Shown here piece after piece: positions 7,020-61,935 of a DNA stretch of 64,000 nucleotides; positions within the stretch are counted from its first letter, which is position 1; every line of letters begins with the position of its first letter. The stretch is from Chloroflexota bacterium (GTDB lineage Bacteria > Chloroflexota > Anaerolineae > J102), in the NCBI GenBank assembly GCA_013151415.1, contig JAADII010000116.1, forward strand, positions 24,512 through 88,511, read 5' to 3'. The notes below the pieces were generated by a model. That model saw only the letters and a program-made list of their open reading frames with translations, did no database searches and was not told the origin of the DNA. Made by a program: the position numbers and the translations under genes.

Positions 7020-8666
7020 TCAACGAGTGATGGCGTTGATGTTCGCGTCTCGGCAATCGCACGCTTTGGCCGCGCGACCGTTTGGCCCTTTCAAACCGCC
7101 CTGATATTCAAAACGACCGAACGCTCGCCAGCCCTCCATGTCGAAGGGTGCGGGGCCTGCGGCCGCCACCCACATGCCGTTATACATGCGCGCGAAGTGC
7201 ACATGCGAGCTGTCGGCCATGCCGCCTTCACACGCGGGCCGTCCCACTTTGTCACCGGCCTTCAAGACAACGCCCTGTTGTGGACGGTCGGTGATATGCA
7301 GATACTGAAGGACCCACCCTGTATGTGGGTTGCCGTCGCCATCGAGATCGAGCAAAACCTGGCCCTCTTCACTGCGCGCGACCACGCCCTCCGCCGCCGC
7401 GCGAGCCCAGGTTTGCGCGGGAATGCAGGTTCCGGGCGTCACATCTTCGGGCACCAGGTCCAGGGCCGCCCAAGCACTACCAGATCCCCAAGCGCCATGA
7501 GGGCCTCCGGTGAGAAACCATGTCTCGCCTTTGGCCCAGGGCAATAGCAGGTCGGGTTGGGTTAGGCCGGCTGGGAGGGGCGGGCCTGCATCCAATGCCA
7601 TGGGATCGCCGAACAGCCGTTGATATGCGTCTGAAAAGGCTTGTATTTCGGCTTCGAAGTCGGCCCATTTGCTGTCGCGGGCCAACGCCCGCTGTATGGC
7701 CACTGTGGCCGGGTTCAGGCCCGGCGCGGCGCGTGCAACCACCCCGTTGTAAAAGCGAATGGCGGTTTCACCCCGGTCTTGCCAACCATAATAACCGCGG
7801 TTCAGTTCCTCCGCGGCCCATTCCAATTGAGACCATAAGCCAGACGCCCCGCCAAAATGACCTAATGGATAGTCAATCGCTCGCGACGACGGCTCTGGAT
7901 TGGTCACCCAGCCGCCGCGCGCCTCCAATAGGGCCAACAGAACGCGCGGGCCTACACTATAATGATCGGCGATGCGGTTCAATATCTCGGCTCCGCTCAT
8001 CTCTCGCCCCCCGGGCATGCGCCGGCGATATGTGGCGAGATAGCCCCCCTGCCCCTGCACAAACGCTTCTATATCAAAATCGTTGTAGGCCGGGCCGTAG
8101 ACGAATTCGCTGTCGGGAATCAGGATATCCGCTGGCGTCAGACGGCGGGTGTGGTGCGGAATCACCAGCATTTGTCCGATGGCGAGCATGTTGGGGTTGT
8201 CGAGCTCGCTGTATTTGATGATATCGGCCACGCTCACGCGATAACGCGCGGCAATGCCGGATAGAGTTTGATTTTCGTATACGCGAATAAATTCCAACGC
8301 CGCGTCGGGCGGAACTGTGGGACCAGGCGTGGGCGCGAGAGGTCGGGTGGGCGTGGCGGTGGGTGTGAGCGTAGGCGTGAGTGTAACCGTGGGCGATGAG
8401 GTCGGCGTGCGCGTGGGCGGGGGGGGTGTGGGGGTGGCTGTGAGCGTGGGCGTTAGGGTGGGCGTGTTTGTGGCGGAAACCGCCGCGACAAACGGCTCGC
8501 TCCCAACGCGCGCCGCGGTGGGCGCGATGGCGGCCGACCGACATCCCGCCAACAGCCCGGCCCATAGCGCGATAATCCAAATTCGTCTGTCGATCAATCG
8601 CGTCATGTAAAAAATATCGACAATCAGACGATAAGGCCGATGGGACAATGGCCTGATGACCGCCAT
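7020..8666 (-). CDS. Secreted LysM-domain protein with a C-terminal M23-like peptidase domain and a Pro/Thr-rich linker
   Basis: Signal/TM N-terminus, a PT-rich linker (TPTLTPTLTATPTPPPP...) and LysM EFIRVYENQTLSGIAARYRVSVADIIKYSEL. The C-terminal HxH region (SSHVHFARMYNG) is M23-like. Confidence 0.6.
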   Translation of the reverse strand: MAVIRPLSHRPYRLIVDIFYMTRLIDRRIWIIALWAGLLAGCRSAAIAPTAARVGSEPFVAAVSATNTPTLTPTLTATPTPPPPTRTPTSSPTVTLTPTLTPTATPTRPLAPTPGPTVPPDAALEFIRVYENQTLSGIAARYRVSVADIIKYSELDNPNMLAIGQMLVIPHHTRRLTPADILIPDSEFVYGPAYNDFDIEAFVQGQGGYLATYRRRMPGGREMSGAEILNRIADHYSVGPRVLLALLEARGGWVTNPEPSSRAIDYPLGHFGGASGLWSQLEWAAEELNRGYYGWQDRGETAIRFYNGVVARAAPGLNPATVAIQRALARDSKWADFEAEIQAFSDAYQRLFGDPMALDAGPPLPAGLTQPDLLLPWAKGETWFLTGGPHGAWGSGSAWAALDLVPEDVTPGTCIPAQTWARAAAEGVVARSEEGQVLLDLDGDGNPHTGWVLQYLHITDRPQQGVVLKAGDKVGRPACEGGMADSSHVHFARMYNGMWVAAAGPAPFDMEGWRAFGRFEYQGGLKGPNGRAAKACDCRDANINAITR

Positions 8667-16629: not shown

Positions 16630-17943
16630 TTACGGCCCCGGCGTGACATTGGCCCATGAAGGCGGAGGCGGGCATTCTTGCTGAGGCTCTTGCGCAGGGC
16701 GGGGAATGGGCGGGGCCTCGAACAGGCTTTCGATGGCCCGATGCACCTTATCGCCATCAGACGTGACCAGATAAGCCCCGCTGGGCAAGTAAAGCCGCTT
16801 GGTGTATTGCGAGTCAAGCACCAGCGCATGCACGTCTTGCATATTGATGCCGCTGGCCATCTGCGCCAGCCCCACCAGGTCCATCAGGCTTAGATTGGTG
16901 CTAAAATAATCTTTGAAAATGCCCCACAGTTTGGGAATCTGGCTGAGAACTCCCGCACGGACAAATTGCTCGCGCGCGGCGGATAGGAATATCTGCTGAC
17001 GTCGGGCGCGAGAATAATCGGATGAGCCGTAACGATAAGTGACGAACTTCAACGAGGTCTCGCCATCGAGATGATTAGGCCCCGCGGGCAAATGCAAAAT
17101 ATCGCCAATGCCAGCGCCATCAGGCAGGGGCGCGTAATCCCAGAATTCGCAGGGCAGGGTCACATCCACGCCCCCTAATGCGTCGATAATCTCTACAAAG
17201 CCCTGGCGGTGCAATCGCGCGTATTTATCCAGGCGGATGCCAAAATTATAGGCGAACGTTCTTTGCAAAAGGCCAAATCCCCCTCCTTCCGCGCCAAAAT
17301 AATCGCCGATAAAGTCGAGTTGATTGATGCGACGATAACCGACTTCGGGCACATAGGCCCAATAGTCGCGAGGGAAAGAGATGATGCCCACGCGATTGTT
17401 TTCCCTATCCACCACCACCAGGAGCATGGTGTCGGTGCGCCAATCGCCGCGCCCCGGACGCAGATCACTGCCTAACAAGAGGATGTTCTGGGTGTTGGCC
17501 AGCGTCTGGGAAGGGGGGGCGGGGGTGGGAATGCAATCGACATAGGGGGTGCAGCCGGGGGGATTGTCGGTGGCCGCGCCTGCATCGATGGTGTTGGTGA
17601 GGCTTTCGGATGGGGCCGTTTCTTCGGTGGGAATAGACGTGGCCGTGGGGTGGGGCGTGTTGGTGGGGGTGGTCGTGAGCGTTGGGGTGGCGGTGGAGGT
17701 GGCGGTGGACGATATCGCGGGCGTTTTGGTCGATGCAAGCGTGGATGTGGGTGTGGAAGTGGGTGCGGGCGTTGGCGTGGCCGTGGGAGAGGGCCGCTCT
17801 GTGGGCGTGGCCGATGGCGAGCGCGTGGCCGCGCTCGTGGGCGCCGCGGCCGCTGCATCAGGCGTTGGCGTGGCGACCGGCGCCGCGCAGGCCGTAAACC
17901 AGAGCGCAAAAAGAAGAACGACGAATGAGCGGTGGAATTTCAT
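16630..17943 (-). CDS. LCP family (LytR-CpsA-Psr) cell-envelope polymer transferase with a Thr/Pro-rich linker
   Basis: Start trimmed to MKFHRSFVVLLFALWFTACAAP (cat at 17941-17943) to avoid overlap with the upstream paralog. LCP motifs LLLGSDLRPGRGDWRTDTMLLVVVD and GIISFPRDYW. Confidence 0.75.
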   Translation of the reverse strand: MKFHRSFVVLLFALWFTACAAPVATPTPDAAAAAPTSAATRSPSATPTERPSPTATPTPAPTSTPTSTLASTKTPAISSTATSTATPTLTTTPTNTPHPTATSIPTEETAPSESLTNTIDAGAATDNPPGCTPYVDCIPTPAPPSQTLANTQNILLLGSDLRPGRGDWRTDTMLLVVVDRENNRVGIISFPRDYWAYVPEVGYRRINQLDFIGDYFGAEGGGFGLLQRTFAYNFGIRLDKYARLHRQGFVEIIDALGGVDVTLPCEFWDYAPLPDGAGIGDILHLPAGPNHLDGETSLKFVTYRYGSSDYSRARRQQIFLSAAREQFVRAGVLSQIPKLWGIFKDYFSTNLSLMDLVGLAQMASGINMQDVHALVLDSQYTKRLYLPSGAYLVTSDGDKVHRAIESLFEAPPIPRPAQEPQQECPPPPSWANVTPGP

Positions 17944-22740: not shown

Positions 22741-24075
22741 TCACACGCCCAGTTGGGCCAGGGTGAGCACATTGCGCAGATGACGGGCTACGGCTTTCTG
22801 GTTTTCGTCATCGGCCGCTTGTTTCTCAATGGCCTCGATGCTCTCTCGCAAGAAATCTAGAAATTCCGGCGTGATCTCCTCTTTGTGCTCCTGCAACACG
22901 GCCTTGACCCCCTGTGGATATTCAGCTTCGGTGAGCAGGTAGAGCAAGCGAATTTCAGGCGGGATCGCTTGCTCCATCGTCTCGGTAATGATGCGCCACA
23001 GTTCTTTCAAACGCTCGCTCGCCGCCGTGGCTCCTCGTTGCTGAGCTTCTTCGATATTGGCCAGGAGCACGGTCATTACGGTTTGGTCAATGTAAGGCAG
23101 CATTTCGCGCACGGCCTTTTCCATGTCCGGTGCCGCGAGAAGCGTTTGCAAAACCTGGTTTGCTTCGGCCAAGACCTGTTGGTCGGCCGCCTGCAAGATG
23201 TTGAGCACCTCGAGAATGCGCTCCCGTTTGGCCTCTTGCGCTTCGCGTTCGTCAGGCGGCAAAGCCTCGATGCGTTCGGCCAGCTCGAGGAAGAATGAGT
23301 AATCCATCAAGGGACGGGCGGCTACGGCGATGGCCTCGGCTTCATCCATATCGGCTTTGAGAATGGCCTCGAGCACAGAGCGACGAGTGGGGCGCTCGCC
23401 CAGGCGCTCCACGGCCTGACGCTGCTTGAGCACCTTGCGCCCAAATTCGGTGATGGGCAAGAGCCGCTCTTCCAACTCGGCCAGTGATTTGGCGGCCTCC
23501 TCCCGCGCTTCGGCCTGGGCCGAAAGCTGAAAACTGCGCAGGATGCGGAAAAACTCTTCGTCGAGCAGTGCTTCGTTTTCCTTGACCGTGACATTGAAAG
23601 CGATGCCGTCGTTTTGAATGCGGGCCAGTTCCTCCACTAACTGCGCCTTTTTACGGCTGGCCTCCAACATTTCGGGCGTGACCCCCTCGAAGCCCAAAAG
23701 CTTTTCGAGAAGGCTGTCCATGGTGAGAAATTGCTGCGGGGTCAGCATGTAGCCGCGACGTTTTTCCGCAGGCAGCGAATCCATAAGCGCCTTGGTCAGG
23801 TCGCCGATGAGCTTCTGGCGTTGATTTTCAGAGAGGTTTAATTGCGGTGGGATGAATACGGCCAGAAACTCATGTTCGGGATCATGATAGAGCAAAGGCG
23901 CAGCCACATAATTGACCTGTCTGCAATGAGGGCACTGGCTGGCGTTGAGCTGACCGGCCAGGACCACTTGTTTGAGCTCGGGGGTTTCCCCCACGTCTAC
24001 GACATGAAAAATGGGCGCTTGATACTGCGCGCCGCAATGTGGGCAGGGAATGGTGGTCGTGGTAGGAGGGAGCAT
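22741..24075 (-). CDS. CpXC-domain protein (N-terminal Cys4 zinc ribbon) with a long alpha-helical repeat region
   Basis: CPHCG...18 aa...CPHC zinc ribbon (CpXC-like), followed by about 330 aa of Glu/Leu/Ala-rich helical repeats. Confidence 0.5.
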   Translation of the reverse strand: MLPPTTTTIPCPHCGAQYQAPIFHVVDVGETPELKQVVLAGQLNASQCPHCRQVNYVAAPLLYHDPEHEFLAVFIPPQLNLSENQRQKLIGDLTKALMDSLPAEKRRGYMLTPQQFLTMDSLLEKLLGFEGVTPEMLEASRKKAQLVEELARIQNDGIAFNVTVKENEALLDEEFFRILRSFQLSAQAEAREEAAKSLAELEERLLPITEFGRKVLKQRQAVERLGERPTRRSVLEAILKADMDEAEAIAVAARPLMDYSFFLELAERIEALPPDEREAQEAKRERILEVLNILQAADQQVLAEANQVLQTLLAAPDMEKAVREMLPYIDQTVMTVLLANIEEAQQRGATAASERLKELWRIITETMEQAIPPEIRLLYLLTEAEYPQGVKAVLQEHKEEITPEFLDFLRESIEAIEKQAADDENQKAVARHLRNVLTLAQLGV

Positions 24076-26098: not shown

Positions 26099-27388
26099 TT
26101 AGGCCGCCGAAGCGAACGCGCGCGCAGCCGCCTCGAGGGTGGCGTCGATTTCCGCTTCGTTGTGCGCGGTGGAGAGAAAGCCCGACTCGAACTGGGACGG
26201 CGCCAGATAGACCCCTTGCGCCAGCATTTCCTGGAAATAGACCGCGAAACGTTGGCCATCCGCGCGCGCGGCCGAATCCCAATCGGTGACCGGCTCGGAC
26301 GCGAAGAACACGCCGAACATGCTACCCAGGCGTTGCGCGACGATGTCCACGCCCGCGGCCCGCGCGGCCTCTTCCAATCCGGATATCAAACGCGTCCCCA
26401 CCCGCTCGTAGTGAGCCCAGGCGTCGGGAGATCGCAACTGTTTCAAGGTGGCGATGCCCGCGCTCATGGCCAGGGGATTGCCCGAAAGCGTGCCCGCCTG
26501 ATAGACCGGCCCGGCCGGCGCGACCATTTCCATGATCTCGCGGCGACCGCCATACGCGCCCACGGGCAGACCGCCGCCGATGACTTTGCCCAATGTGGTC
26601 AGATCGGGCTTCACATCATAGAGCGCCTGCGCGCCGCCCGGATGCACGCGAAAGCCGGTCATGACCTCGTCGAAGATGAGCAACGCTTCGTGCGCGGCCG
26701 TGATCTCGCGCAGACCCGGCAAGAAATCGGGCTTGGGCGGGATCATGCCCATGTTGCCCGCGACCGGCTCGACAATGACCGCGGCGATGTCACGTGGGTG
26801 CTGATCGAAAAGCTGCGCCACCGAATCGAGATCGTTGAAGCGCGCGAGCAACGTGTCTGCGACCGTGGCCGGCGGCACGCCCGGCGAATCGGGCAGGCCC
26901 AGCGTGGCCACGCCCGAACCGGCCTTCACCAATAGCATGTCGGCATGGCCGTGGTAATTGCCCACGAATTTCACGATCTTGTGGCGACCGGTGAACGCGC
27001 GCGCCAGGCGCAGCGCGCTCATCACAGCCTCGGTGCCCGAATTGACGAAACGCACCATCTCGATGTTGGGCATGAACGTGCGGATGAGTCGGGCCAGCTC
27101 GATTTCCAGGGGGCTGGGCGCGCCGAAGCTCGCGCCCCTGGCCGCGGCCTCCTGAATGGCCTGGGTCACCGCGGGGTGCGCGTGGCCCAGGGCCAGCGGC
27201 CCCCACGAAAGCACATAATCGATGTAACGATTGCCGTCCACATCGACCAGATACGCGCCTTCCCCCCGCTCGATGAACAACGGTTGACCGCCCACCGCGC
27301 GAAACGCGCGCACCGGCGAGCTTACGCCGCCCGGCATCAAAGTCTTTGCTTCGGCAAAAAGGGAGATGGAAGTGGAAATGGTGTTCAT
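26099..27388 (-). CDS. hemL: Glutamate-1-semialdehyde 2,1-aminomutase
   Basis: [21 protein letters not shown]...YIDYV and a PLP-lysine region, over full length. Confidence 0.95.
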
Positions 27389-27394
27389 GGTTTC

Positions 27395-27418
27395 AGTTCA
27401 CCGTTCACAGTTCAGAGT
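27395..27418 (-). promoter_or_regulatory. 24-nt conserved intergenic motif ACTCTGAACTGTGAACGGTGAACT (copy 1 of 2) in the hemE-hemL spacer, sense orientation on the minus strand
   Basis: Plus strand reads agttcaccgttcacagttcagagt. Its reverse complement matches the nuoH-nuoI spacer motif at 22/24 positions. Confidence 0.6.
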
Positions 27419-27425
27419 TGGCGGT

Positions 27426-33858: not shown

Positions 33859-33888
33859 TTGACGAGCGGGCAAGCCTCGTGATAGAAT
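33859..33888 (+). promoter_or_regulatory. Candidate sigma-70 promoter of the nuo operon (TTGACG, 18 nt, extended TGaTAGAAT)
   Basis: -35 TTGACG at 33859-33864, TG at 33880-33881, and -10 TAGAAT at 33883-33888, about 55 nt upstream of the nuoA ATG. Confidence 0.35.
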
Positions 33889-34844: not shown

Positions 34845-35018
34845 TAGATACTGGATAGTAGATACTGGATAGTTAGATACTGGATAATAGATATTGGGTA
34901 TTGGATAGTAAATGTTCGATATGAGTACGAAAAGCCCACTACCATCACAATATCCAATACCTAATACCTAATATCCCAAATACCCAATATCCAATACCCA
35001 AACACCCAAAACCCACCC
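34845..35018. repeat. AT-rich imperfect palindromic intergenic element (TAGATACTGGATAG tandem units on the left arm, TATCCAATACC units on the right arm) between nuoB and nuoCD
   Basis: Left arm tagatactggatag occurs 3 times in tandem; the right arm carries inverse complements. GC is about 30%, versus more than 60% in the flanking genes. Confidence 0.6.
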
Positions 35019-36761
35019 ATGCTCGACCCCATCGTTTCTCTCCGCGAAGCGTTTCCCGACGACGTATTGGATAGCAAGGTCTATCGCCAGACGCCCATCG
35101 TCACCGTGCGGGCGGATAAGCTGCTCGAGGTGATGCGCTTTCTGCGCGATGACCTGAAATACAACCTGCTCAGCGATCTCACGGTCGTCGATAATCTTCA
35201 TCTGCCCGAATTCAACGGCTCGGACGCGCGTTTCGTGGGCGTGTACCAATTGCGCAGCATCGAGCGCGACGGCGAATTGCTGCAGATCAAAGCGCCCATG
35301 CCGGGCGGCGATAACCCGGCCATCCCCAGCGTCACCTCGCTGTGGCCGGGTGCGAACTGGTACGAACGCGAGGCGTATGATCTCTTTGGCGTGAACTACA
35401 CAGGCCATCCCGACCTGCGTCGTCTGCTCATGCCCCATGACTGGGTGGGCCATCCTTTGCGCAAGGATCAGCCTTTGGGCGGTGAAAGAGTGCCCTTCAC
35501 CCTGACCTGGGAGGACGAGGAGTTTGCGCATCTGGGCCGACAGATCATGCGGCCCTTGCAAACGCCCGAACCTGTGCCCAGCCGCATGGACACGCGGCAT
35601 ATGGTGGTGAACATGGGGCCGCAACATCCCGCAACCCACGGCGTGTTGCGCCTGATTGTGGAGCTGGACGGCGAGACCATTGTGGCCGTGGAGCCGGACA
35701 TCGGCTATCTGCACAGCGGCTTCGAGAAACAGGGCGAAAACGTCCGATACAAGGACTTCACCTATTACACCGACCGCATGGATTATGTCTCGGCCATGCA
35801 AAACAATCTGGCCTATTCGCTGGCCGTGGAGAAGCTGTTAGGGGTCGAGGCCCCGCCGCGAGCCCAAGCCATTCGCGTCATCGTGGCCGAGCTTCAACGC
35901 ATCGCCAGCCATCTGGTGTGGTTGGCGACCCACGCGTTGGACGTGGGCGGCACGGGCCTGGCGCTGCTGATGTACGCGTTTCGCGAGCGCGAGGCCATCC
36001 TCGACCTGTTCGAGATGGTGTGCGGCGCGCGGCTGACCACTTCCTATATTCAGGTGGGCGGGGTGCAGTGGGATTTGCCGCCCGCGTTCGAGCCGCGGCT
36101 GCGCGAGCTGCTGGCCATCTTGCCGGAGCGGTTCGACGAATACGAACGCATGCTCACCGACAATCCCATCTGGCGCAAGCGGCTTGAGGGCGTGGGCTAT
36201 CTCAGCGCGGAAGACGCCATCGCCATGAACGTGACCGGCCCCATGCTGCGCGGTAGCGGCGTGAAATACGACCTGCGCAAGGCCCAGCCCTACTGCAATT
36301 ACGACCAGTACGATTTCGAGATACCCTGTTACACCGAGGGCGACAGTTACGCGCGCTATTTCGTGCGCATCGAGGAGATGCGGCAATCGCGACGCATCGT
36401 CGAGCAGGCCCTGGACAATCTGCCCGATGGCGATTATCGGCTGGACGACCCCAAAATCGCGCCGCCGAAACGAGACCTCCTGGACCAGAGCATGGAGGCC
36501 CTGATCCACCATTTCAAGCTGTTCACCGAGGGCTTCCGACCGCCGGCCGGCGAGGCCTATCACGGCATTGAGGCGTCCAAGGGCGAGATGGGCGTTTATC
36601 TCGTCTCGGATGGCGGGCCAAAGCCCTACCGTTGCCGGGTGCGCACGCCCAGCTTCGCCAATCTCCAGGCCATCGAAATCATGTCCAGAGGACACCTTTT
36701 CTCCGACCTCGTCACTGTCATCGGCTCGATCGACATCGTGCTGGGTGACGTGGATAGATAG
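35019..36761 (+). CDS. nuoCD: NADH-quinone oxidoreductase subunit C/D (30-kDa and 49-kDa subunits in one ORF)
   Basis: N-terminal NuoC-like region of about 170 aa, followed by NuoD with [18 protein letters not shown] and C-terminal RxxSF..L..IE..S...L.D motifs. Listed as one ORF in the provided track; continuity not independently re-translated. Confidence 0.9.
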
Positions 36762-36770
36762 GAGACGATG

Positions 36771-36806
36771 AGACGATAAGACCATCGTCCCATCGTCTTA
36801 TCGTCT
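36771..36806 (+). promoter_or_regulatory. Stable stem-loop (12-bp perfect stem AGACGATAAGAC / GTCTTATCGTCT, 12-nt loop) in the nuoCD-nuoEF spacer
   Basis: The inverted repeat is read directly from the sequence. Adjacent gacgat(g/a)aga tandem words allow alternative pairings. Confidence 0.45.
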
Positions 36807-36871: not shown

Positions 36872-38743
36872 ATGCTCTCTGACACTGCACGTTCTGAAAT
36901 TCAGGCCCTGATGGGCCGTTATCCACAGCCTCGCTCCGCGATCTTGCCCGCGCTTTATGTGGCGCAGCGCGAGATCGGCTGGCTTCCCACCGAGGCCATG
37001 GACGAAATCGCGACGCTCTTTGGCATGGAGCCGATGGAGGTGTACGCCATCGCCGGCTTCTACAACATGCTGTATAAGGAGCCAAAGGGCCGCTATCATA
37101 TCGAAATCTGCACCAATGTGCCCTGCAAGCTGCGCGGAGCCGACAAGATGGCCGAGCACTTGCAAAAACGGTTGGGCGTCGGCTTTGGCGAAACCACCGA
37201 GGACGGTCAGTTCACCCTCGATCACATGGAGTGTTTGGGGTCGTGCGCGACCGGGCCTATGTTCTTCGTGCGACGCAGCGGCAGCGATTGGGGCCGGTAT
37301 TATGAAGACCTCACGCCAGAACGCATCGACGCGATCCTGGAAGATTTGCTTTCGGGTGAGGATTGGCCCATGGAGCGCTCGCCGGCCGGGCCATACCATC
37401 ACGACCATCATCCCGAGACCAACTTCCTCCTGGCCCGCATCGACAAGCCCGACAGCCACACCATTGAGAGTTACCTGGCCGATGGCGGTTATCAGACCGC
37501 GCCCAAAGTGCTGGCCATGTCGCCGCAAGAGGTTATCGACGAGGTGAAAAAGGCCGGGGTGCGCGGTCGCGGGGGCGCGGGGTTCCCGGCCGGGGTGAAG
37601 TGGGGCTTCATCCCCAAAGACCTGTATCCGCGCTATCTGGTGGTCAATGCGGATGAGTCGGAGCCGGGCACGTTCAAGGATCGGCTCATCATCGAATACG
37701 ACCCGCACGAATTGCTCGAGGGCATCATCTGCACGGCCTGGGCCATCCAGGCGCACTACGCCTTCATTTATATACGCGGAGAATACATGTTCGGCGCGCA
37801 GCGCCTAAACCAGGCCATCGCCGAGGCCAAAGCGCGCGGTTTTCTGGGCAAGCATATTTTCGGCACGGATTTCGATCTGGAAGTGATCGTGCATCGCGGC
37901 GCGGGCGCGTACATCTGCGGCGAAGAAACCGCGCTGCTCAGCTCGCTCGAGGGCTATCGCGGCCATCCCCGACTCAAGCCCCCCTTCCCCGCGGTGGCCG
38001 GGCTTTACGCCAAGCCCACCATCGTCAACAACGTGGAGACCATCTCGCATGTGCGCCATGTGCTCGAGCATGGCGCGGATTGGTATCGCCAATGGGGCAC
38101 AGAACGGAGTCCGGGCTTCCAGTTGATCTGCCTGAGCGGCCAGGTGAAGAAGCCGGGCGTGTATGAAATTCCCTACGGAACCACGTTTCGCGAGCTGATC
38201 TACGACATGGCCGGGGGCACGGTGGATGATCGACCCATCAAGAGCATCATCCCCGGCGGCCTCTCCATGCCCCACATCCTGCCCGACAAGCTCGACATCG
38301 GCATTGATTTCGAGTCGTTGCAACAGGCCGGTTCGTTGCTCGGCTCGGGCGGCGTGATCGTCATTTGCGAGGGCGAGAACATCGTCCCCATCACCCGGCG
38401 CACATTGGGCTTCTACCGCGAAGAGTCCTGCGGCAAGTGTTCGCCCTGTCGCGAGGGCGTCGGCTGGATGGAGAAGATCCTCAAGCGCGTCGAGGCCGGC
38501 CAGGGAACGCTGAGCGACCTGGACACCATGGAACGGGTCACCAAGTATATCGAGCAACAGTCCTTCTGCCCCTTTGGCCCGGCCGCGGTGTGGGGCTTGC
38601 AGAGCACATTGCGTCATTTCCGCAGCGAATTCGAGGCGTACATTCTGGAAACCAACCCCGACCAGGAGAAGCCCTCATTGCCCGCGCGGCCCATCTACCG
38701 GCCCTATGTGGGCGAGCCGCTGGAAAACATGTTGGATGACTAA
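36872..38743 (+). CDS. nuoEF: NADH-quinone oxidoreductase subunits E and F (24-kDa and 51-kDa subunits in one ORF)
   Basis: N-terminal NuoE [2Fe-2S] motifs CTNVPC...CLGSC, then NuoF with the GRGGAGFP FMN/NADH site and C-terminal CGKCSPCREG and SFCPFGP cysteines. Listed as one ORF in the provided track, which is unusual; continuity not independently re-translated. Confidence 0.85.
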   Translation: MLSDTARSEIQALMGRYPQPRSAILPALYVAQREIGWLPTEAMDEIATLFGMEPMEVYAIAGFYNMLYKEPKGRYHIEICTNVPCKLRGADKMAEHLQKRLGVGFGETTEDGQFTLDHMECLGSCATGPMFFVRRSGSDWGRYYEDLTPERIDAILEDLLSGEDWPMERSPAGPYHHDHHPETNFLLARIDKPDSHTIESYLADGGYQTAPKVLAMSPQEVIDEVKKAGVRGRGGAGFPAGVKWGFIPKDLYPRYLVVNADESEPGTFKDRLIIEYDPHELLEGIICTAWAIQAHYAFIYIRGEYMFGAQRLNQAIAEAKARGFLGKHIFGTDFDLEVIVHRGAGAYICGEETALLSSLEGYRGHPRLKPPFPAVAGLYAKPTIVNNVETISHVRHVLEHGADWYRQWGTERSPGFQLICLSGQVKKPGVYEIPYGTTFRELIYDMAGGTVDDRPIKSIIPGGLSMPHILPDKLDIGIDFESLQQAGSLLGSGGVIVICEGENIVPITRRTLGFYREESCGKCSPCREGVGWMEKILKRVEAGQGTLSDLDTMERVTKYIEQQSFCPFGPAAVWGLQSTLRHFRSEFEAYILETNPDQEKPSLPARPIYRPYVGEPLENMLDD

Positions 38744-38798
38744 CGCCTGGTTCAAAGTTTCTGGTTCCTGGTTCAAGGTTAACGCCACCACCCGCCAC

Positions 38799-38875
38799 TT
38801 GACACTTGACACTTGACACCTGACACCTGACCCTTGACACCTGACACTTGACACTTGACACTCAACACCTGACCC
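38799..38875 (+). repeat. Eleven tandem heptad repeats (T/C)TGAC(A/C)C, consensus TTGACAC, ending 3 nt before the nuoG ATG
   Basis: Read directly: ttgacac x3, ctgacac, ctgaccc, ttgacac, ctgacac, ttgacac x2, tcaacac, ctgaccc. They are preceded by ctggttcaa(a/g)g mini-repeats at about 38746-38780. Confidence 0.85.
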
Positions 38876-38878
38876 CTC

Positions 38879-41401
38879 ATGTCCGATTGGATCACCATCA
38901 CCATCGACGGCAAAGAAATCCAGGCCAAGCCGGGCGAACTGCTCGTGGACGCCGCGGCTCGCGCCGGTATCCATATTCCCGTTTTTTGCTATCATCCCAA
39001 GCTCGATCCTTTGGGCGCGTGCCGCATGTGTTTGGTCGAGGCCGAGGGGCGTCGCGGCAAGATGCTCATCACGGCCTGCACCACGCCCGTGGCCGATGGC
39101 GGCGTCTATTATTACGAATCGGAGCGGGCCGTGGACGCGCGTCAGGGCACGCTCGAACTCATTCTCATCAATCATCCCCTCGATTGCCCCATCTGCGATA
39201 AGGGCGGCGAGTGCCCCTTGCAAGACCAAACCCTCGAGCACGGGCCGGGCAAGTCCCATTTTTGGGAGGAAAAAAACCACAAGGCCAAGCATTATCCCCT
39301 CAGCGATCTGATCATGCTCGACCAGGAGCGTTGCATCGTTTGCTGGCGCTGCATTCGCTATCTGGAAGAGTGGGAGGACAAGCCGCAGTTGGGGCTGTTC
39401 CATCGCGGGGGCGAGACCGTCATCGACAAGTTCCCCGACGGCAAGCTGGACGCCTACACCAGCGGCTCCATCATCGACATCTGTCCGGTGGGCGCGCTGA
39501 CCAACCGCCTGGCCCGCTTCTCCTATCGACCCTGGGAGCTGGAGAAAACGCCCTCTATTTGCACGCATTGCGGCATGGGTTGCAACCTGCGCATCGACAG
39601 CCGCACCCATCGCATCCGCCGCAATGTCGCGCGAGAAAACGCGGCCGTCAACGATGAGTGGATCTGTGACAAAGGCCGTTTCGCGATGGGCTTCGCGTCC
39701 CATCCCGAACGCTTGCAAGAACCGCTGGCCCGCATCAACGGCGAGCTTCGCCCCGTCTCCTGGCCCGAGGCGCTGGATCGGGTGGTTCGGGGCCTGAAGC
39801 GGGTGGTCGAGACGCACGGCCCGGCCGCGGTGGCCGCGATTGGCTCGGCCAAGCTGTCCAACGAGGCCAATTATCTGCTGGCCAAGTTCATGCGCGGGGT
39901 TGTCGGCTCGAACAATCTCGACTTTCGCGAGGGATCGGCCGTGGTGGCCGACCCGCGCGGGATCCCCTCGCTGGCCGACGCCCGCGACGCGGATGTGATC
40001 GTCCTCATGGGCTGCGATCCCGGCGAGGAGATGCCGGTGCTGGCCAATTTCCTCAAACGCGCGGTCCTTCGCGGGGGCGCGAAGATGATCATTGTGCACC
40101 CGCGAGCCATCGAGCTGACGCAATACGCGGCCGCGTTCATCAATCCCACCATTGGCGCGGAGAGCGCGGCCTTCGACGCGCTGACGCGCGCCACCCTGGA
40201 CGCGAGCGACGCCATCATCCCCGATTGGCTGCCCGAGGTGGAGGAGGCGGCTCAAGTGGCCGGGATTTCGGTCGAGGATGTACGCGAGGCCGCGCGGCTG
40301 TTGTCACAGGCCAAACGGCCCTTCATCGTCTACGGCGTGGATTACGCCTGGGGATACGGCGCGCGCAACCTGGTCACGGCCCTAACCAACTGGGTGGTGG
40401 CCGCGGGGCATGGCGAGCGGCTGGGCTTTTTGCACAGCCAGGCCAACGCGTTGGGCGCGGCCGATATGGGCATGGCGCCCGACCGGCTACCCGGTCATCG
40501 GCCCCTGAGCGACGCCCGCGCCCGCCGCGAACTGGAGGCTCGCTGGCAAACCGAAATCCCCACCCAGCCCGGCCTCAGCTACGGCGCGATGATGGCTTCG
40601 ACCCCTGACCGCATCCGCGCGCTCTATCTCATGGGCGCGGACCCGGTGGGTGAGAAGCCCGCGGACGCGAAAGCGCTGGCCGAACTCGATTTCCTGGTGG
40701 TGCAGGACATGTTCCTGACCGAGAGCGCGAAGCTGGCCGACGTGGTGCTGCCGGCCGCGTCCTATGCCGAAAGCCGGGGCACGTTCACCAACACCGAGCG
40801 CCGCGTTCAGCGCGCGCCCCAGGCTGTGCGCACGGTGGGCAAGTCGGTGGCCGACTGGGCCATCCTCATGCACCTGGCCCGCCGTTACGCGCCCGACAAG
40901 AAGGACGCCTGGGACACGCCCTCGGTGGACGCGATTTTTGCGGAAATCGCGGAGGTGGTTCCGGCCTATCGCGGCATGAGCTGGGAAAATCTGGGCGAGA
41001 GCGGCCAACAATGGCCCAGAGACGCGGTTTCCCTCTCGCGCGAGCTGCGGCCGCACAGCGGCGCGGCCATCCCGCCCAGCCCGGATTATCCTTTCCGGCT
41101 GGTGGTGGGCTCGTTGTTGTGGGATGGCGGGACCGTGTTCGCGGCCACGCCGCAAATGGCCGGTCTGGCGCGTCAGGCGGCCTGGCTCCACCCTGACGAC
41201 GCGGCCCGTTTGGGCGTTCAGGAGGGCGACGCCATCGAAATTCGCTCTCGCGGCGGTTCGATCCGAACTTTCGCACACCTCGATCCCTCCATCAAACCCG
41301 GTTCGGTCTTCGCGCCTTATTCGTTCCCGGCCGCGCCCGTGGGCAACCTCTTCGACGATTATGTCCCTCGCACCTCGGTCGCGATTGAAAAGGTGACATG
41401 A
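38879..41401 (+). CDS. nuoG: NADH-quinone oxidoreductase subunit G (75-kDa subunit, molybdopterin-oxidoreductase-like)
   Basis: N-terminal 2Fe-2S/4Fe-4S cysteine clusters (CYHPKLDPLGACRMCLVE, HPLDCPICDKGGECPLQD, CIVCWRCIRY, CPVGAL), then a long MopB-like domain. Confidence 0.95.
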   Translation: MSDWITITIDGKEIQAKPGELLVDAAARAGIHIPVFCYHPKLDPLGACRMCLVEAEGRRGKMLITACTTPVADGGVYYYESERAVDARQGTLELILINHPLDCPICDKGGECPLQDQTLEHGPGKSHFWEEKNHKAKHYPLSDLIMLDQERCIVCWRCIRYLEEWEDKPQLGLFHRGGETVIDKFPDGKLDAYTSGSIIDICPVGALTNRLARFSYRPWELEKTPSICTHCGMGCNLRIDSRTHRIRRNVARENAAVNDEWICDKGRFAMGFASHPERLQEPLARINGELRPVSWPEALDRVVRGLKRVVETHGPAAVAAIGSAKLSNEANYLLAKFMRGVVGSNNLDFREGSAVVADPRGIPSLADARDADVIVLMGCDPGEEMPVLANFLKRAVLRGGAKMIIVHPRAIELTQYAAAFINPTIGAESAAFDALTRATLDASDAIIPDWLPEVEEAAQVAGISVEDVREAARLLSQAKRPFIVYGVDYAWGYGARNLVTALTNWVVAAGHGERLGFLHSQANALGAADMGMAPDRLPGHRPLSDARARRELEARWQTEIPTQPGLSYGAMMASTPDRIRALYLMGADPVGEKPADAKALAELDFLVVQDMFLTESAKLADVVLPAASYAESRGTFTNTERRVQRAPQAVRTVGKSVADWAILMHLARRYAPDKKDAWDTPSVDAIFAEIAEVVPAYRGMSWENLGESGQQWPRDAVSLSRELRPHSGAAIPPSPDYPFRLVVGSLLWDGGTVFAATPQMAGLARQAAWLHPDDAARLGVQEGDAIEIRSRGGSIRTFAHLDPSIKPGSVFAPYSFPAAPVGNLFDDYVPRTSVAIEKVT

Positions 41402-43035: not shown

Positions 43036-43109
43036 GATTTGGAGATTGCATCAGCCCTTTCGGGCTTCGCAATGACGCATCCTTTTAACGCAACACGCAC
43101 TACGCAATC

Positions 43110-45879: not shown

Positions 45880-45991
45880 TTGGATATTGGATATTAGATA
45901 CTAGATATTAGATATTAGATATTCTTCAATACCCAATATCCAATACCCATTGTCCAATACCCAATATTCATTACCCATTATCCAAATATCC
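45880..45991. repeat. AT-rich imperfect palindromic intergenic element (GGATATTGGATATTAGATA left arm, TATCCAATACCC right arm) between nuoL and nuoM. It belongs to the same family as 34845-35018.
   Basis: Read directly: ttggatattggatattagatactagatattagatattagatatt, then aatacccaatatccaatacccattgtccaatacccaat.... GC is about 30%. Confidence 0.6.
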
Positions 45992-47476
45992 ATGGATTTC
46001 ACATCCTTGCCTCTTCTTTCCCTGATCCTTTGGCTGCCTTTGGTGGGTGCGCTGCTGCTGATGTTCCTCTTTTCTGAGCGAAGCATCAAAGTGGCCGCGT
46101 TGCTCATCAGCCTGGCCGATTTCGCGCTTTCGCTGGGCCTGCTGGCCGGTTGGCGAAGCACGGGCGCGATGCAGTTCGAGGAGTTCATGCCCTGGATAAC
46201 GCAGTTGAACATCAACTATCACCTGGGCGTGGACGGCATCAGCCTTTTCCTGGTGCTCCTCACCACTTTGATGGGGCCCATCGTCGTGCTCTTCTCTTGG
46301 AACAACATCCAGGAGAACTTACGCGCGTTTCTGATCTTGCTGCTCGTGCAACAGACGGCCATGTTGGGCGTGTTCATGGCCCTGGATTTGATCCTTTTCT
46401 TCCTCTTCTGGGAGATGAGCATCATCCCCATGTATTTCCTCATCGGCAAGTGGGGCTCGGGACGGCGAGTCTATGCGGCCACCAAGTTCCTGCTCTACAC
46501 GTTGGCCGGCTCCGCCTTCATGCTCATCGCCATCATCGCCTTGTATGTGGTCACAGGCAGTTTCGATTGGGTTGATCTGCGCGGGGCGACGCTCACGCCC
46601 GCGCTGGAATTCTTGGCGTTCTGGGCTTTCGCCATTGCTTTCGCGGTGAAGGTGCCCCTTTTCCCGCTTCACACCTGGTTGCCCGACGCGCACGTGCAAG
46701 CGCCCACCGCGGGTTCGGTCATTCTGGCCGGCATTTTGCTGAAGATGGGCACCTATGGCTTTCTGCGCTTCTCGTTGCCCCTCTTCCCTCAGGCCGCAGT
46801 GACTTACGCGCCCTGGCTGGCCGGCGTCGCCATCATCGGCATCCTTTACGGCGCTCTGACCGCCCTGGTGCAAAAGGACGTGAAATCTCTGGTCGCGTAT
46901 AGCTCCATCGCCCATCTGGGTTTCGTCATGTTGGGCATCGTCACCTTCACCAGCCAGGGGCTATCGGGCGCGGTGTTGCAAAACATCAATCATGGCCTCT
47001 CCACGGGCGCGTTGTTCCTCCTGGTGGGCATGCTCTACGACCGCCGCCACACGCGCATGTTGGCCGATTACGGCGGCTTGTGGAAACAGGCTCCTCTGTT
47101 CAGCGCCATCTTCGTGCTGGTGGCCATGTCTTCCGTAGGCCTGCCAGGCTTGAACGGCTTTGTGGGCGAATTCACCATTCTCGTGGGCGCGTTCCGCGTG
47201 AACATGATCTGGGCCGCGTTGGGCACATTGGGCATCATCTTCGCGGCCTGGTATCTGCTCACGGCCGCGCGCGGGCTGCTGTTTGGCCCTCTGGACGAAA
47301 AGAACAAAGACCTGCCTGACCTGAACCGCCGCGAGTTCTGGCTGCTGGTTCCCATTCTCATTCTTTTCTTCATTATCGGTCTTTTCCCCAACCTCTTCTT
47401 CGACAAAATCAATCCCTCGGTCGAGGCGCTCATGCGCGATGTGGGCCAGGCGGCCATCGTGCGGGTTGTCGATTAA
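45992..47476 (+). CDS. nuoM: NADH-quinone oxidoreductase subunit M (antiporter-like)
   Basis: Start trimmed to MDFTSLPLLSLILWLP (atg at 45992) because the longer ORF begins inside the AT-rich repeat. Conserved WLPDAHVQAPTAGSVILAGILLKMG. Confidence 0.9.
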   Translation: MDFTSLPLLSLILWLPLVGALLLMFLFSERSIKVAALLISLADFALSLGLLAGWRSTGAMQFEEFMPWITQLNINYHLGVDGISLFLVLLTTLMGPIVVLFSWNNIQENLRAFLILLLVQQTAMLGVFMALDLILFFLFWEMSIIPMYFLIGKWGSGRRVYAATKFLLYTLAGSAFMLIAIIALYVVTGSFDWVDLRGATLTPALEFLAFWAFAIAFAVKVPLFPLHTWLPDAHVQAPTAGSVILAGILLKMGTYGFLRFSLPLFPQAAVTYAPWLAGVAIIGILYGALTALVQKDVKSLVAYSSIAHLGFVMLGIVTFTSQGLSGAVLQNINHGLSTGALFLLVGMLYDRRHTRMLADYGGLWKQAPLFSAIFVLVAMSSVGLPGLNGFVGEFTILVGAFRVNMIWAALGTLGIIFAAWYLLTAARGLLFGPLDEKNKDLPDLNRREFWLLVPILILFFIIGLFPNLFFDKINPSVEALMRDVGQAAIVRVVD

Positions 47477-49285: not shown

Positions 49286-49315
49286 TTGAGAAGATGGCCA
49301 ATGGCAAGGTATAAT
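49286..49315 (+). promoter_or_regulatory. Candidate promoter of the ATPase/DUF4276 pair (TTGAGA, 18 nt, TATAAT)
   Basis: -10 TATAAT at 49310-49315 and -35-like TTGAGA at 49286-49291. A perfect TTGACA at 49277-49282 is 27 nt away and was not used. Confidence 0.35.
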
Positions 49316-52649: not shown

Positions 52650-53207
52650 TTAATCGCCGGACGCAGAATGCGCAGGCGTGGGCGAGGGCGTGGGGGTTTC
52701 GGTTGGCGCAGGAGTTGGGCTGGGCGTGGGCGAAGGCGTGGGCGTTGATGTGGGGGTGGGTGAAGGCGTGGGGGTGTTGGTGGGCGGCGGAAAGAGCAGG
52801 GGCGTGTCGCTTTGCGGTTGCGAGGGCGCCAATGGCTGCACAACGGGAGGGCCGAGAGGGAAATCGCCTCGCCACATAAAGGTGAGCAGCGCGGCCAACA
52901 CCAACACGGCGAAAGCTGGCGCGGCCCACGCCAGGAGACGGTTCAAGCGGCCCCCGCGAGAGGCCGACGCCTGTCGCGCCGCGCTTTCGGCCGCCGCGGT
53001 GAGAAAGGCCGAGCGTCCCGGACGCAATCCATGCGGGGGCGGGGGCGCGTCGGCCAGGCTGTGTTGCACCTGACGAGCGACAAAGATCAGCGCGCGCTCC
53101 TCCGCGGGCAATTGCTGCATTGTCGCGCCGCTCTTGCCCTCGATAAGTTCGTCGATGGCTCGATCGAGCAGCAGGTCTCGGTCGGCTGAAGATGGGCGAA
53201 TGTTCAT
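52650..53207 (-). CDS. Anti-sigma factor (single TM, Pro/Thr-rich extracytoplasmic tail)
   Basis: 4-nt overlap with the upstream ECF sigma gene. TM helix LLAWAAPAFAVLVLAALLTFMW and a PTPSPTPTSTPTPSPTP tail. Confidence 0.55.
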   Translation of the reverse strand: MNIRPSSADRDLLLDRAIDELIEGKSGATMQQLPAEERALIFVARQVQHSLADAPPPPHGLRPGRSAFLTAAAESAARQASASRGGRLNRLLAWAAPAFAVLVLAALLTFMWRGDFPLGPPVVQPLAPSQPQSDTPLLFPPPTNTPTPSPTPTSTPTPSPTPSPTPAPTETPTPSPTPAHSASGD

Positions 53208-61056: not shown

Positions 61057-61935
61057 TCAGCGCCAGTAGGGTCGGCTATAACGGAGGTCCACTTCTTGCA
61101 CGGCAGCATTGTCTTGCAAAATTTGCCTGCGCATGGCCTCCCACATGCTTAGTTTTTCGCGCATGTTATCGGCCGATCCTAAAAGCACGCGCCAGCCTTC
61201 GGGGCTGAAGAAGAAGAGCCCATACGGCTCTTGATAACGGAATGTGTTCACCTCGGGCAATGTTTGCGAGATATAAAGGATGGCTTCCAACAAGGCCGAA
61301 TCGATTTCTCGATCATTTTGGCGCACGACTCCGTTTTCGTCGATGAGTTTGATCAGATCGTCGCGCGCGGTTACGGCCGGGCTGACCACGCCTTCCTCAT
61401 CGATCCAGAACGATTCGTTTTGCACTTGATAAAGCACGATCGGCTCCCGTTCGATGACCTCGATGCGCATTTCCGCGGGCAAACGCAATGTCACGTTGGC
61501 GTCGCGCACATGAGGCAGCTCTAAAACGCGCGCCCGAATCGCGTCGGCGTCGATGAGAAAGATGCTCGAGGGTGTATTGTAAGCGCGTCTCAAGACGGTT
61601 TCGGGGTTGGTGTAGCGCGCATGGCTCACCTCGGCTGCATAGACGGTGAAGCGCGGCGCGCGGACGCCATAAATCAGGCCGGCCAGGCCCATGACCAGCA
61701 TGAGAAGGGCCAAAACATGGCTGCGTCGCCAGGGATGGCGGCGAATGCGACGCCACGCTCGTCTAAATCCCGAGGCGCGGCGCACGCGTCGCGCGTTTTT
61801 CTTGGATGTTCGTAGTTTGCGAACGTCCAAGATAGCGGGCGCGGTTACTTGAAAACGCCGTTTTGGCGCGCGGCGCTTTTTTCGCTTGGCTTCGCCCTTC
61901 TTACGCGTGGGGCTTTGTCGGTAGTAACTTGGCAT
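61057..61935 (-). CDS. ftsQ: Cell division protein FtsQ/DivIB (basic N-terminal tail, single TM, POTRA domain)
   Basis: Arg/Lys-rich cytoplasmic tail, TM helix VLALLMLVMGLAGLIYGV, and a POTRA-like FTVYAAEVSHARYTNPETVLRRA. Position between ddl and ftsA. Confidence 0.75.
   Translation of the reverse strand: MPSYYRQSPTRKKGEAKRKKRRAPKRRFQVTAPAILDVRKLRTSKKNARRVRRASGFRRAWRRIRRHPWRRSHVLALLMLVMGLAGLIYGVRAPRFTVYAAEVSHARYTNPETVLRRAYNTPSSIFLIDADAIRARVLELPHVRDANVTLRLPAEMRIEVIEREPIVLYQVQNESFWIDEEGVVSPAVTARDDLIKLIDENGVVRQNDREIDSALLEAILYISQTLPEVNTFRYQEPYGLFFFSPEGWRVLLGSADNMREKLSMWEAMRRQILQDNAAVQEVDLRYSRPYWR

Follow-up and report, generated by a model that had tools for sequence, protein, structure and literature searches.

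Tandem repeats of 7-nt units adjacent to start codons have been on record ever since STRR were first reported in cyanobacteria, and they are still without a demonstrated function. The STRR are 7-bp repeats that form hairpins between cistrons, as between hupS and hupL; no function is known for them, and roles in transcript stability or translational coupling have been put forward (PMC2670836). According to a citation in PMC4692102, they also occur in Calothrix PCC 7601. A second group, the TAACTGA repeats of Beggiatoaceae, some Cyanobacteria, and Bacteroidetes, ends a few nucleotides before start codons that lack a Shine-Dalgarno (SD) sequence (MacGregor 2015, PMC4679880), and binding of S1, Csp or CsrA has been proposed for it (PMC4679880). 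The heptamers GGGAATC of Xanthomonas and GGGGAYT of Nostoc are intergenic, with some inverted and some lying within operons (pecE-pecF), and slippage together with the polymerase footprint has been offered as the explanation of heptamer excess (PMC4692102); a reporter study in Nostoc left the role of the heptamers open (10.1101/2022.06.06.494920). Heptads are found in promoters as well, namely TTTTGAT in Vibrio cholerae ctxAB (10.1101/2021.05.14.444153) and the 7-bp SSRs of the Haemophilus HMW1A promoter (PMC8262952). For the Chloroflexota we found only a census of the scattered, heptamer-derived (GATAGRA)n satellites carried by Chloroflexus aurantiacus (Subirana & Messeguer 2019, PMC6749651), and we found no literature report of heptad arrays in Anaerolineae or Caldilineae.

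The array described here lies in a 64-kb stretch of DNA (the window), in the spacer between nuoEF and nuoG (38744-38878, 135 nt by direct reading; all nuo features are on the forward strand). The upstream gene (36872-38743), which ends with a TAA stop codon at 38741-38743, encodes NuoE and NuoF domains in a single 623-aa protein (NuoE 2Fe-2S, NuoF FMN, and NuoF 4Fe-4S; Pfam); the downstream gene (38879-41401) is nuoG by its Pfam domain set, and its start is backed by an N-terminus, MSDW or MTDW, that is conserved among relatives. The 5′ part of the spacer contains G/T-rich mini-repeats (38747-38778), consisting of CTGGTTCAAAG at 38747-38757, CTGGTTC at 38761-38767, and CTGGTTCAAGG at 38768-38778. 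These are followed by eleven heptads with the consensus YTGACMC (38799-38875), arranged head-to-tail and all in register, and then by CTC and the nuoG ATG (38876-38881). The units are, in order, TTGACAC three times, CTGACAC, CTGACCC, TTGACAC, CTGACAC, TTGACAC twice, TCAACAC, and CTGACCC, for a tally of six TTGACAC, two CTGACAC, two CTGACCC, and one TCAACAC. Direct reading and TRF both bear out the eleven heptads ending 3 nt short of the ATG that an earlier note on this DNA had described; its claim that all units conform to (T/C)TGAC(A/C)C holds for ten of the eleven and fails for the tenth, TCAACAC, which has two mismatches.

In TRF the array has period 7, 11.1 copies, 84% matches and a score of 107, the top score in the window. 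Doublets of the unit, with up to two mismatches, occur eight times in the window, all within this array, against 0.19 expected from shuffled sequence; as a heptad satellite of STRR-like type, the nuoG array is real and beyond statistical doubt. On the mRNA the array is rich in C and poor in G (A.27, C.38, G.13, T.22), has TGA in all three frames, and has no G-runs on either strand; the antisense ORFs called across it are artefacts of the repeat, as had been supposed. No purine-rich SD sequence precedes the nuoG ATG, with a single G in the 20 nt before it, and the absence of SD noted earlier is thus confirmed. The prediction of an unstructured RNA also held: no inverted repeat was found in the nuoEF-nuoG spacer, and its RNA folds no better than shuffled sequence (z +0.97). 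The pairing of the 5′ mini-repeats with the array is marginal (duplex of −20 kcal/mol, z −1.5, p 0.066), and the mini-repeats may be a decayed G-rich partner arm. Rfam gave no matches at gathering score in the whole window.

Three further spacers of the same operon are filled with repeats of 7- or 8-nt units, as seen by TRF and direct reading. Between nuoB and nuoCD, a G-richer stop-proximal arm of TAGATAC/TGGATAG units (34845-34897) starts directly after the stop codon, and a G-free start-proximal arm of nine CAATACC units (34948-35015) stops 3 nt short of the nuoCD ATG at 35019; the two arms pair with each other (z −2.4 and −2.7). The nuoCD-nuoEF spacer (36762-36806) has 2.6 copies of the 8-mer GAGACGAT and then three of the inverse CATCGTCT. 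Between nuoL and nuoM, a stop-proximal arm of six GATATTA units (45883-45923) precedes a start-proximal arm of eight CAATACC/CAATATC units (45927-45985) that ends 6 nt before the nuoM ATG at 45992. In all three the second array is the reverse complement of the first and an RNA hairpin is predicted, with fold z-scores of −2.4 (nuoB-nuoCD), −4.1 (nuoCD-nuoEF), and −2.75 (nuoL-nuoM) and arm-arm duplex z-scores of −2.7 to −5.8; the nuoEF-nuoG spacer is the exception among the four repeat-filled spacers in having no hairpin. The tandem repeats in non-coding nuo DNA amount, in the window, to five period-7 arrays in three nuo spacers plus the 8-mer pair, and no period-7 array with a TRF score of at least 40 is present in the remaining 49 kb outside nuo. 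The YTGACMC repeat of nuoG is confined to its own array within the window. A weak array, CAGTTCA, is located at 27394-27419, immediately 5′ of a minus-strand gene.

These features resemble those of several described systems, and none of the named unit families matches. Like STRR, the nuo repeats are 7-bp tandem units in intergenic or intercistronic operon spacers, occur at many loci per genome, and are often inverted and capable of forming hairpins; they differ in that STRR belong to filamentous cyanobacteria and comprise a few genome-wide unit families, whereas the host here is a member of the Chloroflexota, the units are locus-specific, and there is enrichment in complex I operons. The nuoG array differs from STRR further in having no partner arm, although the sibling spacers do have inverted hairpin arms, and to our knowledge YTGACMC is not among the STRR units (STRR1-3). 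With the TAACTGA repeats the nuoG array shares forward heptamer repeats near a start codon, the lack of an SD sequence, stops in all three frames, and a lineage that makes little use of SD; TAACTGA is, however, one fixed unit at ~170 sites in 2-6 copies, whereas the nuoG unit is TTGACAC, in 11 copies and unique in the 64-kb window. The (GATAGRA)n satellites come from the same phylum, and the TAGATAC/TGGATAG arm between nuoB and nuoCD is of GATAG type, but the published work is a census without analysis of position, polarity or operons, and the nuoG unit is unrelated. GGGAATC and GGGGAYT are similar in being intergenic heptamer SSRs that vary in length between relatives, with some inverted pairs and some copies in operons, and dissimilar in that they can form G-quadruplexes, unlike the G-poor nuoG array. 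The ctxAB and HMW1A repeats are likewise tandem heptads upstream of a gene; those, however, lie in promoters, bind a regulator or tune output by copy number, and vary among strains, whereas nuoG is a housekeeping gene for which no promoter was found and the copy number is stable in relatives. Enterobacterial REP/BIME elements are also repeated extragenic sequences that lie between cistrons or after stop codons and form mRNA hairpins. REPs are imperfect palindromes of ~35 nt belonging to one family and mobilised by RAYT transposases; the Chloroflexota arms, by contrast, are tandem heptads with locus-specific units, and the nuoEF-nuoG spacer contains no stable palindrome. The nuoG array fits the descriptive criteria of the STRR-like kind (tandem heptads, intergenic, at multiple loci, start-proximal, and without SD) and belongs to no named unit family.

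A scan of GTDB genomes provided 69 loci for comparison, which are Caldilineales-like, Anaerolineales-like, and, for six of them, an Actinomycetota outgroup (one titled only 'uncultured bacterium'). The nearest relatives of the window are Caldilineales/Anaerolineae MAGs. NuoG of the window is 65-77% identical to that of the Caldilineales-like MAGs and mostly 44-55% identical to that of the Anaerolineales-like ones; its own cluster has a single member, and the next NuoG relative is 72% identical. When the 220 nt 5′ of nuoG were compared across the scanned loci, many relatives were seen to have tandem heptads at this junction with a sequence unrelated to TTGACAC: ATCGTCY (L002), ACGTTCA (L005), AATCATY (L006), ACGCAAC (L009), ACGCATC and ACGTAAA together with their inverses (L010-L012), GAAGATT ... 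AATCTTC (L024, L027, L028, L036, L039, L058), TTTGCMA (L030, L061), and GATTCGY (L037, L038, L043, L051). The search in related genomes that the earlier note had recommended therefore does recover heptad arrays before nuoG, though not arrays of its unit; what recurs at the nuoG junction is the 7-nt period and the position, not the sequence. The nuoG unit itself appears in a two-arm element in the nuoI-nuoJ spacer of one relative (L055), as (GTGTCAA)6, a loop, and (YTGACAC)9, with a fold of −72.7 kcal/mol (z −6.3).

Same-clade relatives include some with array-free nuoEF-nuoG spacers of 49-63 nt, and the array is thus dispensable; several relatives have further genes placed between nuoF and nuoG. 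Between closely related pairs, spacers that contain arrays show 0.92-0.95 identity, as compared with 0.82-0.89 at third positions, and copy number is unchanged at 11-18% third-position divergence, with indels only at greater divergence. The arrays of relatives therefore show no hypervariability, and their constraint is no lower than that of synonymous sites. In Anaerolineales-like relatives that use SD the arrays are followed by a GAGG site, and the heptads of the GATTCGY group are in phase with its SD region, which suggests that arrays were seeded by duplication of local leader sequence; units of the Anaerolineales clade do resemble such duplications, with ATTCGNN beside CCATTCGAGGATTCGTT-ATG.

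Statistics were compiled over the window and the 69 loci (1.17 Mb), with genes called from codon usage modelled locus by locus. Among tandem periods, 7 is the most frequent, at 146 arrays against 65 of period 8 and 33 of period 14; 114 of the 146 period-7 arrays are non-coding, while ~85-90% of the DNA is coding, and arrays with periods divisible by 3 are mostly coding. Of 558 co-directional nuo-nuo spacers, 89 (16%) contain heptad arrays, against 2 of 186 other co-directional spacers nearby (1%; Fisher p 6×10−10). Their density is 0.199/kb within nuo runs and 0.056/kb outside (p 3×10−8), a comparison that is independent of gene calls outside nuo, so that the enrichment of nuo over flanking DNA is 3.6-fold by density and ~17-fold, as an odds ratio, by the share of spacers carrying arrays. 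At least one array is present in 46 of 64 Chloroflexota loci and none in the six Actinomycetota loci. For this lineage, the view that heptads in a respiratory operon are unusual does not survive these counts, nor the three further repeat-filled spacers of the operon itself.

The arrays are also regular in placement and polarity. About half start within ~10 nt of the upstream stop codon, and ~60% end within 30 nt of the start codon; the median nuo spacer is 102 nt long with arrays and 49 nt without. Complementary arms are present in 26 of the 30 spacers with two or more arrays, and in 24 of these 26 the G-rich arm comes first. The usual layout is a stop codon, a G-rich array, its C-rich reverse complement, and a start codon, giving a hairpin, and the nuoG array is a one-armed, C-rich, unstructured form of this element, which is two-armed in the sibling spacers and in relatives. 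A G-rich arm in first place reads alike on both strands of an inverted repeat, and only the bias of one-armed arrays really depends on which way the downstream gene runs: among arrays that have no detected partner and are within 30 nt of a start codon, C exceeds G on the sense strand in 30 and G exceeds C in 6 (p 7×10−5). The polarity bias is the same in both clades. The 3′ arm is not systematically longer than the 5′ arm (14 against 10, not significant).

The translational context was examined in the same loci. An SD-like tetramer at −20 to −4 is found in ~27% of the window's genes, in 18% in the Caldilineales-like loci, and in 50% in the Anaerolineales-like loci. Leaders of the window's clade are depleted in G (0.17-0.20 as against a genome value of 0.30), and the nuoG array (G 0.13, C 0.38) matches the general leader composition of the clade. 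For nuo genes, the unpaired probability of the start region (−25 to +10) averages 0.45 where arrays are present (n = 62) and 0.43 where they are absent (n = 614; p 0.43), and because the two sets do not differ in accessibility the arrays confer no measurable structural advantage. In relatives the arrays do not generally replace SD, as they coexist with GAGG in the Anaerolineales-like genomes. A role of the nuoG array as a translation leader or as an RNA-binding platform is possible.

The unit TTGACAC was also searched for in metagenomes. At least 120 contigs carry (TTGACAC)3, with GC contents of 33-70% and eukaryote-like satellites among them; among the matches listed, no nuo genes adjoin the repeat, its orientation toward start codons shows no bias (10 against 7), and the source contig is not among the 80 loci listed for (TTGACAC)3. 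We do not take (TTGACAC)3 to mark any particular family, given this spread of contigs and the lack of nuo neighbours or orientation bias among the matches listed; by itself the unit TTGACAC is uninformative.

Our preferred reading starts from the anatomy, distribution and polarity observed above and from the absence of a promoter, an SD sequence and a stable structure. It holds that the nuoG array is a lineage-typical STRR-like satellite, born by slippage, which forms a G-poor, unstructured, untranslated leader compatible with SD-independent initiation, and we give this about an even chance of being correct. Set in the untranslated nuoEF-nuoG spacer of the nuoA-N operon of a Caldilineales-like Chloroflexota MAG, the array would have arisen when a 7-nt unit slipped locally during replication, the mechanism put forward for heptamer SSRs generally, and any effect would be exerted through the RNA and irrespective of sequence. 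The array would provide a G-poor, C/A-rich, structure-free and stop-rich stretch reaching to position −3 of the nuoG AUG, at which the ribosome would start without SD pairing, as at most genes of this genome. Position would then constrain composition and orientation, with repetitiveness and the exact unit left free.

Slippage may also have produced the array as a neutral by-product that has no effect on nuoG expression, its polarity mirroring only the local seeding sequence. We regard this as quite possible, if on balance doubtful. A neutral origin would agree with the variation of the unit among relatives and the lack of an array in the nearest ones, with the absence of any gain in accessibility, with the leader-like units of the Anaerolineales clade, with the expansion of arrays within the nuoG reading frame, where they form a variable insert in a loop, and with the status of (TTGACAC)n as a common satellite of unrelated metagenome contigs, with no start-codon orientation bias among the matches listed. 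It fits poorly with the strong orientation and polarity bias, with the close conservation of array spacers at fixed copy number in close pairs, and with a density in nuo that is 3.6- to 17-fold above that of flanking DNA. By analogy with STRR and REP/BIME, the array could instead be a remnant or variant of an intercistronic hairpin that serves mRNA processing or stabilisation, or the translational coupling of nuo cistrons. The significant folds of the three sibling spacers, the complementary arms of most multi-array spacers, the strong fold of the nuoG unit in L055, the weak pairing of the 5′ mini-repeats with the array, and the hupS-hupL hairpins of the literature all point in this direction; the nuoEF-nuoG spacer itself, with no inverted repeat and a fold z-score of +0.97, makes such an origin unlikely.

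The remaining explanations require something of the unit or of its copy number. A platform recognised in a sequence-specific manner by a regulator that binds RNA or DNA (for example of S1, Csp, CsrA or KH type) would suit eleven regularly spaced units, and protein binding has been proposed for both the TAACTGA repeats and the Nostoc heptamers; alternatively, a Rho rut site could tie nuoG-N transcription to translation, since the tract has the general rut composition, being 77 nt long, C-rich (0.38), G-poor (0.13), and unstructured. Either is improbable in our view: the units differ among spacers of one operon and among genomes, so that a single protein cannot read all arrays, and the nuoG unit is present nowhere else in the window. 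Rho binds YC dimers, and UUGACAC itself has no YC dinucleotide, these being confined to CCC runs and to the borders with CUGACMC units (direct reading). A terminator or attenuator in the nuoEF-nuoG spacer was rejected, as no intrinsic terminator was found in the scan of 38300-39300. The earlier note had also suggested an array of −35 boxes, in which multiple TTGACA copies drive a nuoG-N transcript. Six units do contain a perfect TTGACA, the periodicity of the array offers GACACT at 17-nt spacing, and the genes inserted between nuoF and nuoG in several relatives mean that in some genomes a transcription unit can start with nuoG. The idea is nevertheless very unlikely to be right. GACACT, the best −10 available, matches TATAAT at only three of six positions (A2, A4, T6), and a consensus scan for sigma-70 −35/−10 pairs with 16-18 nt spacing returned no sites in 38300-39300; the best sigma-70-like match of the operon, TTGACG-18-TAGAAT with TG (33859-33888), is ~54 nt upstream of nuoA, a second promoter-like site follows nuoN (49286-49315), and the scan found none in the spacers within the operon. 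The sibling units CAATACC and GATATTA have no resemblance to promoters, and because relatives carry unrelated units at the nuoG junction (ACGCAAC, GAAGATT, GATTCGY, TTTGCMA) the match of TTGACA to the −35 consensus looks coincidental. A length-variable contingency tract, likewise raised earlier, or an assembly artefact is scarcely credible. Tandem 7-mers are prone to slippage and the source is a MAG, but the array lies between a stop and a start codon, where gain or loss of 7 nt shifts neither a reading frame nor a promoter spacing, nuoG is a housekeeping gene, and the arrays of close relatives hold their copy number at the divergence given above. The 77 nt are made up of four unit variants in aperiodic order, and equivalent arrays are present in 46 independent assemblies; because they occur in dozens of assemblies made independently, among them contigs of 0.35-1.5 Mb, a class-wide assembly artefact is excluded.

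More speculatively, heptad arrays might constitute an intercistronic RNA module of constrained polarity, its G-rich arm leading and its C-rich arm abutting the start codon, that specifically colonised complex I operons across Anaerolineae and Caldilineae. Such a module might serve to insulate or to couple the translation of adjacent cistrons, or shield C-rich RNA from Rho, and the nuoG array would then be a one-armed derivative, serving as an SD-independent landing pad for ribosomes or as an exposed entry point for Rho, gating nuoG-N expression. We consider this rather unlikely as it stands.

The nuoG array and its counterparts extend heptad repeats to a second lineage that is filamentous and poor in SD, namely the Caldilineales and Anaerolineae. 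If the arrays are functional, they would represent a sequence-nonspecific way to express long operons without SD sites; if they are neutral, they would offer a clean natural system in which to ask why 7 nt is the preferred unit of slippage. Any functional or mutational model has three regularities to account for, namely the enrichment in complex I operons, the near-invariant order of the arms, and the in-frame spread into a loop of NuoG. The last of these was seen in relatives in which two-arm arrays with the G-rich arm first also lie inside the nuoG ORF, distant from any start codon, and proximity to a start codon alone therefore does not explain the polarity. These arrays expand in frame as a variable loop insert of NuoG, and units of the GGGATYA type recur among them.

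The 130 nt upstream of nuoG were compared between L036 and L039, two of the related loci recovered from the GTDB genome scan. The start-proximal arm of the inverted repeat pair together with the leader, 69 nt in all, contains no difference, substitutions and indels being confined to the loop and the 5′ arm; at third codon positions of nuoG the same two loci diverge by 11%. No such asymmetry between the arms is seen in the changes that separate the related loci L024 and L027.

Two gene fusions in the window's nuo operon are common to the relatives: nuoC-nuoD is a single ORF of 580 aa (35019-36761) and nuoE-nuoF one of 623 aa (36872-38743), each with both sets of domains found. The operon has a seam between nuoF and nuoG. 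In several relatives nuoEF is separated from nuoG by at least one unrelated ORF or by several hundred nucleotides, or alternatively, in some, non-nuo genes precede nuoG; interrupted junctions are present in L001 (8095-9824), in L043 (8649-10001) and in many Anaerolineales-like loci. Despite the interruption, some of these loci, L030, L043 and L061 among them, still have heptad arrays just 5′ of nuoG.

Anaerolineales-like relatives also carry two-arm heptad arrays within the nuoG ORF itself, at L033 11346-11534, L030 2970-3096, L025 11343-11445, L052 11356-11455 and L051 7756-7852. The G-rich arm (GGGATCA or AGGGGTC) precedes the C-rich arm (CAATCCC or CAATACC), the heptad copy number varies between genomes from 4.6 to 16, and in all five loci the nuoG reading frame is kept throughout. 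The arrays align as a low-complexity loop insert of variable length in NuoG (GVRDQGLGIRDQ... / ...NPQSPIPNP), positioned after the conserved ...AAVQA; the NuoG encoded in the window does not have this insert.

Three further nuo spacers of the window operon are filled by tandem 7- or 8-mers arranged as inverted pairs: 7-mer pairs in the B-CD spacer (34845-35015) and the L-M spacer (45883-45985), and an 8-mer pair in the CD-EF spacer (36762-36806). Computed folding predicts a hairpin for each, spanning from the stop codon to between a few and ~65 nt before the next start; the 3′ ends of the B-CD and L-M pairs lie 3-6 nt upstream of the ATG, and that of the CD-EF pair lies 65 nt upstream of the next start. 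The nuoI-nuoJ spacer (43070-43109) contains degenerate ACGCAMY heptads (aacgcaac acgcact acgcaatc) that reach the nuoJ ATG and score under the threshold of the tandem repeat finder (TRF). Their unit is similar to that of the ACGCAAC and ACGCATC arrays in the related loci L009-L012.

Outside nuo, the sole start-abutting heptad run in the window is a short one at 27394-27419, immediately 5′ to the start codon (ATG) of a non-nuo gene (26099-27388, minus strand); it reads CTGAACT GTGAACG GTGAACT on the sense strand of that gene and is G-richer than the nuo arrays. G-rich tandem repeats of period 6 or 12 (GTGGGC, GTGGCGGTGGG, GGCGTG) lie inside long ORFs at 8327-8466, 17639-17780 and 52675-52786; on the minus strand they would presumably be translated as peptide repeats.

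No rRNA genes are present within the 64-kb window. Across all of its gene starts (examples surveyed include those of 22741-24075 and 61057-61935, both minus strand, and those at 35019 and 42556), Shine-Dalgarno-like motifs are scarce, accompanying ~27% of genes, and leaders are C-rich and G-poor. The start context YCTC-ATG is common in the window, and is shared by nuoA, nuoB, nuoEF, nuoG and nuoI.
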